NCBI GenBank assembly: GCA_000004985.1
Contig: GG738918.1
DNA length: 64,000 nucleotides
Origin: Naegleria gruberi
Lineage: Eukaryota
Strand: one strand, 5' to 3'
In this document: piece after piece, positions 1 through 6,961 of the stretch
Position numbering within the stretch: position 1 is the stretch's first letter
Layout of the letters: each line of letters begins with the position of its first letter
Notes under the pieces: model-generated
Databases searched by the model: none
What the model saw: the letters and a program-made list of their open reading frames with translations, nothing else
Told to the model about the DNA's origin: nothing
Translations under genes and position numbers: made by a program

Positions 1-1503
1 GAATGCATTATTGAAAGCATCCTTCTTTGATTTACCTCTTGCTGTTGTAATGTAGGATTCTCCAATTTTGACCACGACTTGGAAATGTGGTTTTGGTTCT
101 GCATCAATAATTTCATATTCCTCACATAGAAATTCTCTCTTTCCAAGATTTAATAAGGTAATAAGAAATACCATTGCTTCCTTTGTTGGAATATTATCAA
201 TGTTAATCTTTGGAAATCCATTTTCCATTTCAGCTTTCTTCTTTGAATTGGATGTTTCAGTATCTTCATTTTCACCTTGCTTGAAATCCTTAATATAATC
301 AGAATATAATGAAGATAGGAACTTGACATTGATTTTCATTTCACTTGGCTGTTTCAAATCATAATGTATTAAATACTCTCTATTTTCTGAATACTTTTGG
401 TGAGCAATATATCTATCCATAAATAATTTAATATCAAATCTTCTCGGTTTAGAAATATAATCATTTCCACATAGAATAAATAAAAAGGTCATATCTGTAA
501 TAATTCTCGATAAATCTTCATCTGATTTAGTTCTACATCGACGAGCAATTTGTTCCTTTAGTTTGGTAACATCATATAATTGATAAAAACCAGGCATATC
601 TTTCACAAGAGTAATATGTCTATTGCGTGGTAAATTGAGAGCATATAAAACAAAATCTGAATCTCCAGAAACAATCAAATCTCTCTTCTCCTCCTTTTTG
701 TGATTGTTTTTCTCTGATGAATAAATATGTTCAAGGATTTTAAACTCTCCCTCACCTTCTCTCCCAGCAGGTGAATGATAGAATGCAAGATTATTATTAA
801 AAGTAGGATTTGTTAGCACCAATGCACCCAATTGCCAAATAACTAGTGAAACTTCTTGCATTAAATTTGTTCCTGGAACAAACCAAACAGAACTAATTGC
901 CTTCTTTTCATTTCTTTCATTAATTACATTTTTCTGAATGAGTTTCAGGTAAATCTTTTGCACTTCAGTGAGAACAATCTCTTCATCCATATCTGATAAA
1001 TTAATAAATGAAACAAACGTATTTCCAGTATTTGTCATTGCACTATTCAAATATCTTCTAACTTTTTGTGTAATTAATTTACTTCTAGGTGCAGGACCAT
1101 CCACAGAAAAGAATAAACTTTCTCTAGCATCAAAATGATTCAAATATCTCATTACTCCCTCCAAAACAACAGAATGAAAAACCATTCTAGTATCTTGTGG
1201 AATTTCTTCATCTTCTCCTTCTATCTTTGTACCATTATCCTTTTCTGTTGTTGAATCTTGTTCCAAAATTGATTCCTTTCCTTGATTCATTACATTTTGA
1301 TGGTATTTCATCCTATTCATTATCTTTCTAGAACCATGTGTTGATTTATACAGCAGAGTATTAAAATCAAAATAAATATTATCATAAACATCCTCTGGTT
1401 TAATTGAATTATTCCTCCTCGTATTATTTAATTCATCTTTTGTGATGATGAAAGATTCTCCGAAGAGAATTGATAAAGTTTTGTAGAATGAATTAATTCC
1501 CAT
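1..1503 (-). CDS. XRN-family 5'-3' exoribonuclease-like protein (catalytic core CR1) with a C-terminal dsRBD-like segment. Partial: it starts at the ATG at 1503 and runs off the window start.
   Basis: A hand translation of the minus strand from the ATG at 1503 is open all the way to position 1. It reads MGINSFYKTLS..YDNIYFDFNTLLYKSTHG..SVDGPAPRSK..QKVRRY..GREGEGEFKI..SGDSDFVLYALNL..CGNDYISKP. These match the conserved acidic motifs of Xrn1/Rat1 (MGxPxFF, DxLYLDMN, IDGVAPRAK, PGEGEHKI, LDADLIML, GNDFLP). Near positions 1-120 the reading is EYEIIDAEPKPHFQVVVKIGESYITTARGKSKKDAFNNAF, which fits the dsRBD consensus (P.H...F.....G.....G.SKK.A...AA). The ORF track does not list this ORF because it is incomplete. 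Confidence 0.6.
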   Translation of the reverse strand, partial: MGINSFYKTLSILFGESFIITKDELNNTRRNNSIKPEDVYDNIYFDFNTLLYKSTHGSRKIMNRMKYHQNVMNQGKESILEQDSTTEKDNGTKIEGEDEEIPQDTRMVFHSVVLEGVMRYLNHFDARESLFFSVDGPAPRSKLITQKVRRYLNSAMTNTGNTFVSFINLSDMDEEIVLTEVQKIYLKLIQKNVINERNEKKAISSVWFVPGTNLMQEVSLVIWQLGALVLTNPTFNNNLAFYHSPAGREGEGEFKILEHIYSSEKNNHKKEEKRDLIVSGDSDFVLYALNLPRNRHITLVKDMPGFYQLYDVTKLKEQIARRCRTKSDEDLSRIITDMTFLFILCGNDYISKPRRFDIKLFMDRYIAHQKYSENREYLIHYDLKQPSEMKINVKFLSSLYSDYIKDFKQGENEDTETSNSKKKAEMENGFPKINIDNIPTKEAMVFLITLLNLGKREFLCEEYEIIDAEPKPHFQVVVKIGESYITTARGKSKKDAFNNAF

Positions 1504-1715
1504 TGTTGTTTGTTTTTCAAAAATTTATTCTCAAAAGATTCAAATTGTTTCTACAGTAGAATCGGAAATTGATTGGATTTTAAAAACAATCAATTTCTTC
1601 AATGTGTTTGAATTAAAACAATTTTTTTTAAAATTTAAAATTTTACAAATTAATTTAATAAATACAGAGTGTGGTGTGATTGTTGTACAGCAAAGAAATA
1701 TAATGGTGTGTTAAA

Positions 1716-3173
1716 TTAATCGTTGAATTGAACAATAATATTAACACCACGATCGGCAATAACTTCAGTATCAGTAGCATAAAGTTCAGTTCCTGTATGG
1801 AATAATTCCTTGACCTTCTTCTTCAAGTTTGGTTCAGTCATTTGTCTGAGAGTTGCAGGTTTAGTCAAATACAAAGTTTGGTCACTAGTCAAATTACGTA
1901 ATGAAGCATTGTTGAATTGAATTGACTTGTCGGTTCTCAAAATATCTCTAAATTCATCCAAAGTAATATCTGATGAACAAGTAATTGTCTTTGAAACACC
2001 AGCAGGACCACATTGCAAACAATCTGGCTTTCTTTCATTCTTATAAGTGAATGTATAAATACCTTCACTTCCGTTAAACATCATGTAATCATCCAAGAAT
2101 GGAGTACAGAAAGTAGCCAATTTGAATGCTTCATTTGTACATGATGAAGCAATAATAGCATTGGTGGAGGCAATAGCAGGAATGATACCCTTGATGACAC
2201 CTTGTGTTAAACGGAATGTAACACCAGCAATACCAAAGTTCTTGGCACGTTCCAAAGACTTTTCATAGATCCATTGAACGTGTCTTGGATTATCACCATC
2301 AACTTGTTCATCATCAGGAATACCTTCCTTTCCTTTACAATTACGCCATTCTTCAATATAACAATATTGAATACAATGTTCAGGAAGACGTGGAGTTGTC
2401 TTTAAAGTACACATTGGATAATTTGTTTCATCAGTAGGGAATAAATCCAAAGTACATTCATAACAAGATGTAACACCTGGCAAGATAACTCTAGATTGTC
2501 CTTTAAAGCCTTCAGTACCACCATCAACCAAGGAAATCATGGAACTCATATCAACTTCAGTCTTTTCATCATCAACATATTGAATCAAAGAGAGGAGAGT
2601 ACTATTGATCCAACGACGAGCTGGAATAGAATCCAAACCAGCAATAATAATTCCAAATGATCTATAGAAATCAACAGACTTTTCTTGGATTGCACAAATG
2701 TGTGCTGTAACTTTAACACCTGGCACTCTTTCATTGACAAATCGAGCAGCAACTTCAGCCTTCATCTTACCAACATCACCATCACGGAACAAAAATTGTC
2801 TATTCAAATTACTTGTACTGATGGTATCCATATCAATGATATCAATATTACGGAAGCCACTCATTGCCAAATTCTTCACCAAATCGCAACCAAGACCACC
2901 AGCTCCAATAATTAAAACTTTGCAAGAATCTTGTAAAAATTGTTTAGTTTCATCACCAGCTTGGAAATCTGCTGGAGCAAATGGACCTGATCTCTTCAAA
3001 ATATAATCAAGATCTTTCCATCTTTCTGCTTCAATTTCAGGAGGGAATGATGTATCTACAACGCTGGCCATTTTTTTTCTATGTATTGAATTGATCAAAC
3101 TTGCAGAGAACTTGAGTTTATTTTTAAATCCAAAGTTGCTGCTTTGAAAGGCTTGGGATGAACTCAACAACAT
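1716..3173 (-). CDS. uba3: NEDD8-activating enzyme E1 catalytic subunit (UBA3). The likely true start is the MASVVD methionine at 3071.
   Basis: It carries the ThiF/MoeB-type E1 fold motifs VLIIGAGGLGCDLVKNLAMSGF..IDMDTISTSNLNRQFLFR, the catalytic Cys region and a C-terminal NEDD8-E1 domain. It aligns along its whole length to UBA3. Confidence 0.85.
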   Translation of the reverse strand: MLLSSSQAFQSSNFGFKNKLKFSASLINSIHRKKMASVVDTSFPPEIEAERWKDLDYILKRSGPFAPADFQAGDETKQFLQDSCKVLIIGAGGLGCDLVKNLAMSGFRNIDIIDMDTISTSNLNRQFLFRDGDVGKMKAEVAARFVNERVPGVKVTAHICAIQEKSVDFYRSFGIIIAGLDSIPARRWINSTLLSLIQYVDDEKTEVDMSSMISLVDGGTEGFKGQSRVILPGVTSCYECTLDLFPTDETNYPMCTLKTTPRLPEHCIQYCYIEEWRNCKGKEGIPDDEQVDGDNPRHVQWIYEKSLERAKNFGIAGVTFRLTQGVIKGIIPAIASTNAIIASSCTNEAFKLATFCTPFLDDYMMFNGSEGIYTFTYKNERKPDCLQCGPAGVSKTITCSSDITLDEFRDILRTDKSIQFNNASLRNLTSDQTLYLTKPATLRQMTEPNLKKKVKELFHTGTELYATDTEVIADRGVNIIVQFND

Positions 3174-4444: not shown

Positions 4445-6961
4445 ATGTTTCATCCATTCAATCGATCATTTTCCATCTCGATCAATCATCGATGGGTAAA
4501 AAAAATCCATCTAAAAATTTATGTCATGGTTTCTCCAAGATCAAAAAAAATGCCAAGATCATCCACTCCAACCAAAAGGAAAACCATTCAACAGCCATTA
4601 ATATTTCAACCCACTTTGAAGAAAACTAAATCATCCGAAACAACGTTGAATTCTCCTATTACTATTAGTGATGATGGTGAGAATGAGGATTTATTGTTAT
4701 CAGCTGATGGAGATCAAGCACATGATGATGATATTGAAATATCAACAGAGACTGTTTCGGATTCATCAAGCAAATATTCAATTATTAGAACACCTATTAA
4801 TGATTCATCGACAGTGGATGAATTGGGATTGGAAAGTGTTGAAGCTCATGAACTTCAACAATATTTCAATGCTGAGAAATATTTAGCTAAAGAAAAAGGT
4901 AAATGTAAAAAGATTTATTGCATAGATAGAGGATCTTCATTTACAAAGGGTAACAAGTTTGATATTTTAGAAAAGAGAGTCAAACCAACTATATTAAAAT
5001 TTGGACATAAGGAAAAGACACAATTTTTACCTTCTCAAACATTTTACAATTTACAAAAAGGTCAAGTGAAGATGGGTAAATTTGAGGTTAGTAATGAATG
5101 GGAAGAATTGGAAAATTTGAAAAAGATATTCATGGTGAGTGAGTTATTGGAAATTGGATTAAAATCTGAGAAGAAGAAACTTAGAGTATCTCACATTATT
5201 TATTTAATGATTAGAGATTTAATATCTCAATTATTAACAACTAAAAAACAAGATTCTAATTATTTGGAAGGTATTGGTGCATGGATATTTACATGTCCAT
5301 CAGGAACAAGTGTATTTACTAAATTAATATTTAGAAATTGTATATTTAAAGCATATAATAGTTTAAACATTAATGAAAATAATCCATTACAAATAGATGA
5401 CATATATGTTATTGAGGAATGTACATTATTGAAATATTTTGCCAACAATCAAGAAAAAACATCTACAATGTTTGTTGATTTGGGTCATTTAACACTTGAT
5501 GTCGTTGTGATGGATTTAATTGATGGTGAATATATTGTAACATTTAAAAATGGTGAATCTAGTGGAATGTCACTCATACATCAATTATTAAAAGATAATG
5601 GATTAGATTCAATTAAGGAAATGGAAAATTTATTTGATAATTATCATGATTCTAATGAATTACCACCATCTTTATTACCTCTTAAAAATCAAATTGATGA
5701 AACATTGAAAACTATTACAAAACCTCTATGTATGATGATATTACAAAAGCAAGTAGATTCTATTCACTTTTCAGGTGCTATTACACGAGTTGCTTATTTT
5801 CAAAGAAAATTACAAGAAAATATTAGTTATGTACGTTTACAAAATATTAAGAATGAGCTACTTCCATATTTAAAAGAAGAATTCAAGAATAGAGATATAC
5901 CTATTATTGAATTTTTATGTGAAACTACAGGTGAAAGTGCTTTACTATCAGGTGCAGAAGAAATGATTAATTGTTCTTTAATGAAAATTTCACAAAATGA
6001 ACTCGATTGTAATGTTCCAATTATATTTAAGGAGAAATCTATTAGTGAACAAGTACTTAGTGAACCCTCAATATCATCAATACCAGAAATGAATGAACAA
6101 ACACTACCAACTACTATTGATTGTTTATTATCATCTATTAGTTATAATGACAGTAATAATATTGAGCAGTATGTACCTGCCATGCTATTTGACCATTGCA
6201 ATAGTGGAAGGGTCGAAAAAAAAATGTTATTGGGAAATGTTTTACTAGACATGAATATTAAACAAGATACTGAAATATTTTTAATCAAGTTTAGTCCACT
6301 CATTGATACTAAATTAATATCAACTATTGATTATGAAAATTTTGAAAAAGTGGGAATTATTGAATTCATTAGATTTACCAATTTAATCATTTGTTTTGAT
6401 TGTAATCACATTAAAACTACTACCAATTTACACTTTTATATGAAGTTGGATTTGGAAGATGATTTCTTATTAGTTAGAATTTATTATACTAAAGGTAAAT
6501 CCTTTTTTAAAACTATTACACGAATTGAAAGAAAAGGAAGAAATGAAAGAATTTCCATTAATGATTCTGCTCAACTAATTTTTAAAACAAAAGAAGATGA
6601 AGTAAGAACATGGTATGGTGTATATTATGATACTTTGAGTATTGTATCCAGTTTTTCAAGTATTTCCATTAAATATGCAGAATTAGAAAACGAAATTGGA
6701 GTTGAAAAAGCAAAGGGATTACATGTTGGTAGCAAGCAGCTATCTATTCCAAGTATTGGATCAAAAGATAAGGAATTTGTAAGAAAACACCTTTCTAAAT
6801 GTTCTGTTTGTCAATGCGAAATTAAGAAGGTGCATGCTTGTATTTCTTATAACAAACTACCAATATTTAGAAAAGTATTTGATGATAATTCCATTAATCT
6901 TGGAAATTGTTGTAGTCCTTGTTATAGAATCTATAATGATTTAAAAAAGGAAGAAAAATAG
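4445..6961 (+). CDS. HSPA12-like atypical Hsp70/actin-fold (ASKHA) protein, with degenerate phosphate-binding loops and a Cys-rich C-terminal motif.
   Basis: IYCIDRGSSFTKGNKF resembles the HSPA12 phosphate-1 motif AIDFGTTSSGYA. FVDLGHLTLDVVVMDLIDGEYIVTFKNGESSGMSLIHQLL resembles the HSPA12 phosphate-2/connect motif VVDCGGGTVDLTVHQI..LYKASGGPYGSLGVD. The conserved glycines are replaced (DRGSS, DLGHLT). The C-terminus has a CSVCQCEIKKVHAC...CCSPC cysteine cluster. The true start is probably downstream, at MVSPRSKK (4526) or MPRSS. Confidence 0.45.
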   Translation: MFHPFNRSFSISINHRWVKKIHLKIYVMVSPRSKKMPRSSTPTKRKTIQQPLIFQPTLKKTKSSETTLNSPITISDDGENEDLLLSADGDQAHDDDIEISTETVSDSSSKYSIIRTPINDSSTVDELGLESVEAHELQQYFNAEKYLAKEKGKCKKIYCIDRGSSFTKGNKFDILEKRVKPTILKFGHKEKTQFLPSQTFYNLQKGQVKMGKFEVSNEWEELENLKKIFMVSELLEIGLKSEKKKLRVSHIIYLMIRDLISQLLTTKKQDSNYLEGIGAWIFTCPSGTSVFTKLIFRNCIFKAYNSLNINENNPLQIDDIYVIEECTLLKYFANNQEKTSTMFVDLGHLTLDVVVMDLIDGEYIVTFKNGESSGMSLIHQLLKDNGLDSIKEMENLFDNYHDSNELPPSLLPLKNQIDETLKTITKPLCMMILQKQVDSIHFSGAITRVAYFQRKLQENISYVRLQNIKNELLPYLKEEFKNRDIPIIEFLCETTGESALLSGAEEMINCSLMKISQNELDCNVPIIFKEKSISEQVLSEPSISSIPEMNEQTLPTTIDCLLSSISYNDSNNIEQYVPAMLFDHCNSGRVEKKMLLGNVLLDMNIKQDTEIFLIKFSPLIDTKLISTIDYENFEKVGIIEFIRFTNLIICFDCNHIKTTTNLHFYMKLDLEDDFLLVRIYYTKGKSFFKTITRIERKGRNERISINDSAQLIFKTKEDEVRTWYGVYYDTLSIVSSFSSISIKYAELENEIGVEKAKGLHVGSKQLSIPSIGSKDKEFVRKHLSKCSVCQCEIKKVHACISYNKLPIFRKVFDDNSINLGNCCSPCYRIYNDLKKEEK

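Follow-up and report, generated by a model that had tools for sequence, protein, structure and literature searches.

The first 1,503 positions of a 64,000-nucleotide stretch of Naegleria gruberi DNA (contig GG738918.1, assembly GCA_000004985.1; in the following, the window) hold the 5' part of a gene for a divergent XRN exoribonuclease with a predicted double-stranded RNA-binding domain (dsRBD) inside its core. Throughout the eukaryotes, RNA is degraded and processed in the 5'→3' direction by XRN enzymes, and to our knowledge canonical XRN1 and XRN2 carry no dsRBD. The gene lies on the minus strand, as do all window coordinates given for it here. Its ATG at 1503–1501 opens a frame of 501 codons that is free of stops up to position 1. 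Within 13 codons or fewer upstream of this ATG we found three in-frame stops, and the product begins with MGINSFYKTL, the conserved XRN start; the start codon is therefore secure. An organellar targeting peptide was ruled out, as the open reading frame opens directly at the MGI of the XRN N-terminus with stops just upstream. Codons 1–501 (window 1–1503) are 100% identical to residues 1–501 of a 643-residue database entry, P0001, 'predicted protein [Naegleria gruberi]', and we hence conclude that the gene is cut by the window edge and runs on past it.

Orthologues were found in N. lovaniensis (803 residues), N. fowleri (798 residues) and Willaertia magna (765 residues). At the N. fowleri locus (L001, 6001–7914), the first exon of the gene is a 637-codon open reading frame ending in CVSSCVSYK and a stop. 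About 200 bp downstream, a second open reading frame on this N. fowleri-type contig (L001, 8119–8532) encodes a conserved C-terminal region of about 137 residues that is included in the 798–803-residue N. fowleri and N. lovaniensis models; the orthologues run about 150 residues past CR2, the second conserved part of the nuclease core. The separate downstream frame in N. fowleri implies an intron there. The 643-residue N. gruberi model stops at the same point (...SAK) as the first N. fowleri frame, and it probably lacks its last (3') exon, after an intron. Database names of family members are 'predicted protein', 'hypothetical protein' or 'Xrn1 N-terminal domain-containing protein'; the Acrasis entry is named 'RAT1'.

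To assign the nuclease core we used Pfam models, structure matches and three alignments, i.e., A1 (the four orthologues), A2 (the four orthologous dsRBD segments) and A3 (ten family members). The Pfam model XRN_N, PF03159, matched the N. gruberi protein with 113.2 bits (cutoff 22.9, E = 1.8e-32) and the orthologues with 108–125 bits, the best stretch being residues 96–301 (window 601–1218). The XRN core called by the first-pass annotation of this DNA is thus far above threshold. From XRN_N and alignments with Rat1 and Xrn2 structures we delimited CR1 as residues 1–352 (window 448–1503). It contains the N-terminal MGI helix, an acidic insert specific to Naegleria (60–104) and a segment (about 150–205) that aligned with the tower stretch of Rat1. 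With phmmer, the protein matched crystal and cryo-EM chains of Rat1, Xrn2 and Xrn1, the Rat1 structures at E of about 1e-7. The A3 profile matched C. elegans XRN2 (5fir) with E = 7.5e-65, CR1 falling on profile positions 1–341 and CR2 on 473–573, and K. lactis Xrn1 (3pie) with E = 1.4e-63. Foldseek with a full-length AlphaFold model, which we used for secondary structure and coarse fold matching only and not for placing the dsRBD relative to the active site, returned 27 Rat1, Xrn1 and Xrn2 chains as top matches. Identity to XRN2/Rat1 and XRN1 is only about 16–19%.

The acidic insert (EQDSTTEKDNGTKIEGEDEE..., window 1192–1326), which is of low complexity, separates the first catalytic motif from the next CR1 helix. 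All three Naegleria species have it, Willaertia and the other relatives do not, and it is predicted to be disordered (pLDDT, the predicted local distance difference test, 25–43).

Residue equivalences in the active site were taken from the A3 profile on 3pie_A, with native numbering over CR1, and from the family alignments; codons within the window were checked directly. All seven acidic metal ligands of K. lactis Xrn1, D35, D86, E176, E178, D206, D208 and D291, have counterparts in N. gruberi D46, D135, E251, E253, D281, D283 and D348, which bears out the earlier statement that the frame starting at 1503 contains every catalytic acidic motif. D46 (window 1366–1368; A3 profile on 3pie_A) is invariant in the four orthologues; it lies outside the invariant or near-invariant columns of A3, where two sequences are truncated at the N-terminus and do not reach it. 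D135, near-invariant among the ten A3 sequences, shares the motif VDGPAPRSKLITQKVRR (window 1054–1101; alignments and codons) with the 5'-phosphate pocket. The pocket residues K93, Q97, R100 and R101 of Xrn1 correspond to K142, Q146, R149 and R150 in the motif PRSKLITQKVRR, conserved to at least 90% in A3. The remaining ligands are invariant in A3, i.e., E251 and E253 in EGEGEFK (window 745–753), aligned with GEG(E/Q)HK of 3pie_A, D281 and D283 in SGDSDF (window 655–663), and D348 in GNDY (window 460–462).

Substrate bases are stacked by His41 and Trp540 in Xrn1 and by His61 and Trp706 in CtXrn2. The equivalent of the CR2 tryptophan is W574, invariant in A3 and located outside the window; its Xrn1 counterpart is presumably Trp540. 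As judged from these alignments, the two-metal active site and the 5'-monophosphate pocket are complete and the CR2 stacking tryptophan is present.

Residues 564–629 of P0001 (DYLVMCAWFMSYIQGKNLGYSQYYKPKSIPS...) aligned with CR2 of a protein with XRN_N and XRN_M (E = 2e-4), the XRN_M or CR2 motif being Y-x-E-G-L-x-W-V-L-x-Y-Y. With the A3 profile, CR2 aligned to residues 415–507 of 5fir_A and to Xrn1, up to a SPIxDFYP-like motif. The Pfam model XRN_M, PF17846, was not detected in the N. gruberi protein itself and was above threshold in its relatives P0008, P0009, P0028 and P0034. A Pfam scan of the four orthologues at E ≤ 1 found nothing besides XRN_N and a weak dsrm match, and in particular no Xrn1 C-terminal domains. 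The order of the N. gruberi protein is hence CR1 (1 to about 352), a linker of helices and low-complexity sequence (353–435), the dsRBD (436–507), a helical segment (508–562) and CR2 (563 to about 640). In the proximal linker (window 199–447), poorly conserved helices are followed by a low-complexity stretch rich in Lys and Glu; identity among Naegleria is 14–33% and pLDDT is low. We conclude from the alignments that the dsRBD is nested in the CR1–CR2 linker, neither replacing CR2 nor fused to the C-terminus. The first-pass annotation had read the dsRBD as standing in place of CR2 and the tower, in a compact XRN core. This has to be revised: a recognisable CR2 follows just outside the window, with a further conserved C-terminal region behind it, and the tower-equivalent region is found inside CR1. 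Its assignment of core and dsRBD to a single frame stood, with no stop or intron between the parts in N. gruberi or in N. fowleri (L001, 6001–7914).

The dsRBD comprises residues 436–507, of which 436–501 are encoded in the window (1–198); the last six or so residues of its helix α2 fall outside. We recognised the elements α1 (440–450), β1 (459–466), β2 (473–480), β3 (483–490) and α2 (493–507), with GKSKKDAF marking the start of α2. The sequence GKSKKDAFNNAF at window 36–1 is the junction of β3 and α2, which in dsRBDs is the main phosphate-contacting region. Four independent lines of evidence, i.e., PDB matches of the A2 profile, a segment model with its Foldseek matches, profile–profile alignment and PDB matches of the A3 profile, led to the assignment. 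When the A2 profile was run against all PDB sequences, the top three matches were dsRBDs (T. maritima RNase III, vaccinia E3 and K. polysporus Dcr1), each at E of about 0.1 and all in β1-β3-α2 register. With the A3 profile, the sole non-XRN matches in the PDB at E ≤ 0.001 were TARBP2, ADAR2 and STAU1 (E about 4e-4), and these fall on A3 positions 359–450, between the CR1 and CR2 matches. Alignment of A2 with hhalign gave a probability of 90.2% (E = 1.5e-6) against ten classical dsRBDs, a reference alignment that served as a detection device and not as a curated seed.

AlphaFold2 folded the 85-residue segment with pLDDT 79 and a predicted template-modelling (TM) score of 0.70 into an α-β-β-β-α arrangement with one extra helix (H6–16, E25–33, E39–46, E49–56 and H59–73 in segment numbering, H and E standing for helix and strand). 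The top 50 Foldseek matches of this segment in the PDB were almost exclusively dsRBDs, with probability of about 1.0, TM scores up to 0.65 and E from 2e-3 upward, and included TRBP, DHX9, ADAR1, Staufen, RNase III, Drosha, PKR and mitoribosomal mL44. In the full-length model, residues 440–507 again had the α-β-β-β-α topology. Identity of the insert among Naegleria is 40–45%, compared with 60–70% for the core and 14–19% for the adjacent low-complexity linker. The insert is thus far better kept than the linker it adjoins, and we conclude that it is under constraint. On profile and model evidence, residues 436–507 are a domain of dsRBD fold.

Word-indexed searches with the single sequence, A1 or A3 returned almost only the four orthologues from Heterolobosea. 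The wider family came from an exhaustive HMMER search of the orthologue profile against 1.84 billion representatives, which found 3,370 XRN relatives. The closest matches outside Naegleria were Acrasis kona (Heterolobosea), the amoebozoans Balamuthia mandrillaris, Planoprotostelium fungivorum and Acytostelium subglobosum, the cryptophyte Hanusia phi and several environmental eukaryotic contigs; taxonomic assignments follow the source labels of the database entries. Pfam models in these relatives occur in the order XRN_N, dsrm, XRN_M, the last matching model positions of about 190–290. Scores for dsrm, PF00035, with a Pfam cutoff of 23 bits, were above threshold in P0034 (36.6 bits), P0009 (28.7 bits) and P0028 (26.0 bits) and below it in P0134 from Hanusia phi (21.9 bits), P0027 (19.8 bits), P0040 (15.6 bits) and P0066 from Planoprotostelium (15.2 bits). 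P0029 from Acytostelium had no dsrm match, and its DSRM_2 match of 15.0 bits was below the cutoff of 27 for that model. With an iterated hidden Markov model, the insert was recognised in at least 11 of the proteins retrieved, which represent 10 distinct family members, and the aligned inserts share the signature G-x-G-x-(S/T)-K-K-x-A...AA...L. In a crude neighbour-joining tree of 103 XRN representatives, branches were long and unresolved; most dsRBD-bearing proteins were placed near the Naegleria clade, and monophyly cannot be claimed.

At the level of these profiles, the nested layout is conserved in Heterolobosea, Amoebozoa and uncultured eukaryotes, with a sub-threshold member in a cryptophyte. 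In our literature searches, no report of an XRN with a dsRBD turned up. This supports the remark in the earlier annotation that it did not recognise a described family, as far as the combination of domains is concerned; the combination is no isolated oddity, as the layout is kept in several protist lineages. We are dealing with a well-understood enzyme and a domain insertion that is undescribed but phylogenetically recurrent.

Two further features were seen among the relatives. P0020 from Chloroparvula japonica (964 residues), a close XRN relative, has an RRM_1 domain at its C-terminus (28.9 bits), and no dsRBD was detected in it. Different RNA-binding modules may thus have been gained more than once by compact protist XRNs. 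Moreover, P0002, P0157, P0004, P0008, P0027, P0028 and P0066 end in a short basic and hydrophobic tail (A3 columns of about 960–1000), e.g., RKFHTLLRRFIK, RVLRLL, NILRILR or RVCHLMRR, preceded by conserved DLYHG...W and QPTxK motifs. The tail may be a partner-binding or localisation peptide.

A published survey lists two Xrn1 homologues and one Rat1 homologue for N. gruberi, with far stronger E-values; the Rat1 homologue is XP_002679109 (E = 1e-35 against Rat1p), and the protein described here is not among the XRN homologues listed (PMC5862402, Table S6). Separate Xrn1 and Rat1 homologues thus exist in this organism, and the dsRBD-bearing protein is therefore an additional paralogue. By sequence tests it is a member of the XRN family and is neither an Xrn1 nor the Rat1 orthologue of the genome.

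A large C-terminal extension with the D1–D4 and SH3-like domains is specific to Xrn1. With XRN1 and XRN2/Rat1 the Naegleria protein shares the core of CR1 and CR2, the seven acidic ligands, the K/Q/R/R pocket, the CR2 tryptophan and the MG(I/V) helix. In contrast to these enzymes, at the low identity given above, family members such as those from Naegleria are much shorter (about 640–800 residues), and the Naegleria protein has no Xrn1 C-terminal domains, no CCHC zinc finger and a Tyr in place of the stacking His. Its CR1–CR2 linker houses a folded domain, whereas the linker of canonical Xrn2, from C. thermophilum, is long, flexible and disordered (PMC9512700).

The best functional analogy is the CCHC zinc finger in CR1 of C. 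thermophilum and metazoan Xrn2, which sits loosely on the active-site face, increases the affinity for RNA 1.5- to 3-fold and specifically speeds up the breakdown of stable GC stem-loops (PMC9512700). Both are small modules on a flexible tether in the XRN core, nucleic-acid-binding in the case of the zinc finger and putatively so in that of the dsRBD. They differ in fold (zinc knuckle versus dsRBD), in position (inside CR1 after the DxD motif versus the CR1–CR2 linker) and in their likely ligand, i.e., single-stranded RNA for the zinc finger and helical RNA for the dsRBD.

Trypanosomes, which like Naegleria belong to the supergroup Discoba, have the additional, highly diverged XRN paralogues XRNE, XRNF, XRNB and XRNC. 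The likeness, drawn from the published description, is that these proteins are recognisable by XRN_N only and keep the catalytic residues. XRNE is nucleolar and trims pre-rRNA, and neither XRNE nor XRNF has an identifiable domain outside XRN_N (PMC3854532). The RNase III family (RNase III, Rnt1, Dicer and Drosha) likewise combines a ribonuclease unit with a dsRBD that positions helical RNA, and the closest counterparts of the Naegleria dsRBD, by fold and by profile, are the dsRBDs of RNase III, Dcr1 and TRBP. However, nuclease fold and chemistry are unrelated, a double-stranded RNA endonuclease differs from a 5' exonuclease that threads single strands, and the RNase III dsRBD is C-terminal whereas that of Naegleria is nested.

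Minimal XRN homologues also occur on at least 59 Nucleocytoviricota contigs in IMG/VR (L003–L061). These proteins, from giant-virus metagenome-assembled genomes, resemble the family in their compact CR1 and CR2 (about 470–630 residues) and matched its profile with E down to 1e-56. Unlike in the Naegleria protein, however, a short linker connects CR1 with CR2 and the dsRBD positions of the profile are skipped; a dsRBD was detected in none of the 59 viral loci. We therefore rejected a giant-virus origin of the architecture, as the viral XRNs lack the dsRBD and are no closer to the family than cellular XRNs.

We propose, with a probability of roughly 60%, that the gene product is a third 5'→3' exoribonuclease of the XRN family in N. 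gruberi, one in which a tethered dsRBD recruits structured or duplex RNA. Such an enzyme would hydrolyse 5'-monophosphorylated RNA processively, like Xrn1 and Xrn2. The dsRBD, tethered by flexible low-complexity segments of the CR1–CR2 linker, would hold helical parts of the substrate, and its grip on helices could bring RNAs with structure or duplexes to the nuclease or keep them there. Its role would then be analogous to that of the Xrn2 zinc finger in the decay of stable stem-loops. As candidate substrates we consider pre-rRNA intermediates and RNase III or Dicer products that bear a 5'-monophosphate, between which the evidence does not discriminate. A role in RNAi or rRNA processing, as suggested in the earlier annotation, is speculative.

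Several observations weigh against this proposal. The N. gruberi sequence beyond residue 501 lies outside the window and was read from database proteins, not from DNA; P0001 had no contig match in an exact search. The full-length AlphaFold model, built on a four-sequence alignment, is poor, with a mean pLDDT of 51. At the position of the stacking His41, Naegleria has a tyrosine, Tyr52 (window 1348–1350; A3 profile on 3pie_A), where Willaertia and Planoprotostelium have His; being aromatic, Tyr52 is probably competent in the stacking role. For the dsRBD, the Pfam dsrm match in N. gruberi (residues 465–500) reached 18.7–19.0 bits, below the cutoff, and dsrm was undetected in the orthologues from N. 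lovaniensis, N. fowleri and Willaertia. The dsRBD was therefore not acceptable on Pfam alone and rests on the four other lines described above. The earlier call of a well-formed dsRBD was right as to a dsRBD-like fold at 436–507 including GKSKKDAFNNAF, and generous as to 'well-formed'. Canonical RNA-contact residues are kept only in part as well. In N. gruberi, loop 2 carries P-K-P-H and the start of α2 S-K-K-D-A-F, and the orthologues keep only the first basic residue; the third Lys of KKxAK gives way to Phe, Leu or His. While N. gruberi and N. lovaniensis retain the loop-2 His, N. fowleri and Willaertia lack it, and it is not conserved across the wider family.

The strongest alternative is an active enzyme with a degenerate dsRBD, i.e., an insert that does not bind RNA and instead provides protein contacts (dimerisation or partner docking) or a structural plug in the linker, much as Staufen dsRBD5 and TRBP dsRBD3 serve protein–protein contacts. 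The weak or undetectable dsrm match and the partial conservation of the KKxAK and GPxH motifs would fit this explanation, as would the presence of protein-binding dsRBDs among the Foldseek matches, e.g., the complex of Miranda with Staufen dsRBD5 (5cff). However, the element best kept across the family is the start of α2 with its G-x-G-x-(S/T)-K-K-x-A...AA signature, precisely the phosphate-contacting region; moreover, several relatives have a canonical dsrm match above threshold, and all four orthologues keep a basic residue at the first Lys position. We consider a degenerate domain unlikely on balance, albeit an explanation to be taken seriously. Clearly less probable is that the protein is simply the Rat1/XRN2 orthologue of Naegleria, with a lineage-specific insert and the standard nuclear tasks of termination and 5' trimming of rRNA and snoRNA. 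Its best PDB sequence matches are indeed Rat1 and Xrn2 chains, the Acrasis kona homologue was named RAT1 by its submitter, and in trypanosomes a highly diverged XRN, XRNE, performs an rRNA task (PMC3854532). Yet N. gruberi has two Xrn1 homologues and, in XP_002679109, a separate and much closer Rat1 homologue; the A3 profile scores XRN2 and Xrn1 nearly equally; and the family spans Discoba and Amoebozoa, with a sub-threshold cryptophyte member, so that the insert is not specific to Naegleria. Finally, the gene could be an artefact, either an XRN gene joined to a neighbouring dsRBD gene by mis-assembly or mis-prediction, or a decaying pseudogene. In favour of this there is only the cut by the window edge and the 643-residue model, which looks 3'-incomplete compared with the orthologues. 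Against it stand the uninterrupted frames, 501 codons in the window in N. gruberi and 637 codons over CR1, dsRBD and CR2 in N. fowleri, the intact catalytic residues and the recurrence of the same domain order in more than ten distant homologues. As CR2 follows the dsRBD, a single enzyme core surrounds the domain, and with a continuous frame in two species a fusion of two genes is excluded; the artefact is effectively refuted.

If the gene encodes an exonuclease with a tethered RNA-binding dsRBD, as we favour, the finding adds to a short list, since we know of few accessory RNA-binding elements in XRNs, i.e., the zinc finger of Xrn2 and the C-terminal domains of Xrn1. That a dsRBD is conserved in a CR1–CR2 linker which is otherwise disordered indicates that this linker is able to host a module, and it suggests how an exonuclease threading single strands could be directed to RNA with structure or duplexes. 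For protist biologists, the protein would be a candidate for 5' decay linked to double-stranded RNA or to rRNA. The pathogens Naegleria fowleri and Balamuthia mandrillaris both carry a member, and there is no human counterpart with this layout. No principle is overturned; RNA enzymes often accrete domains, and no long-standing question depends on this layout. A bolder idea, which we regard as rather unlikely, is that the family represents an ancient third class of eukaryotic XRN, found in Discoba, in Amoebozoa and possibly in Cryptista, which animals, fungi and plants have lost. Its dsRBD would couple recognition of double-stranded RNA to 5'→3' decay, and the enzyme might scavenge products of RNase III or Dicer or double-stranded RNA of viruses and transposons. 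If true, RNA silencing or antiviral RNA decay in protists would have an arm that has so far escaped recognition.

The window has a G+C content of about 31% and is dense with long open reading frames on both strands. Immediately upstream of the XRN gene, on the same strand, a frame at window 1716–3173 encodes a protein with ThiF (E = 1.4e-53) and E2_bind (E = 3.4e-17) domains, which by these Pfam matches is the catalytic subunit of a UBA3-type NEDD8-activating enzyme. Its stop is separated from the XRN start codon by 212 bp, the intergenic or leader region at window 1504–1715 (minus strand). On the plus strand, window 4445–6961 holds an open reading frame of 838 residues that has no Pfam match at E ≤ 0.001 and ends in a Cys-rich sequence (CSVCQC...CCSPC).

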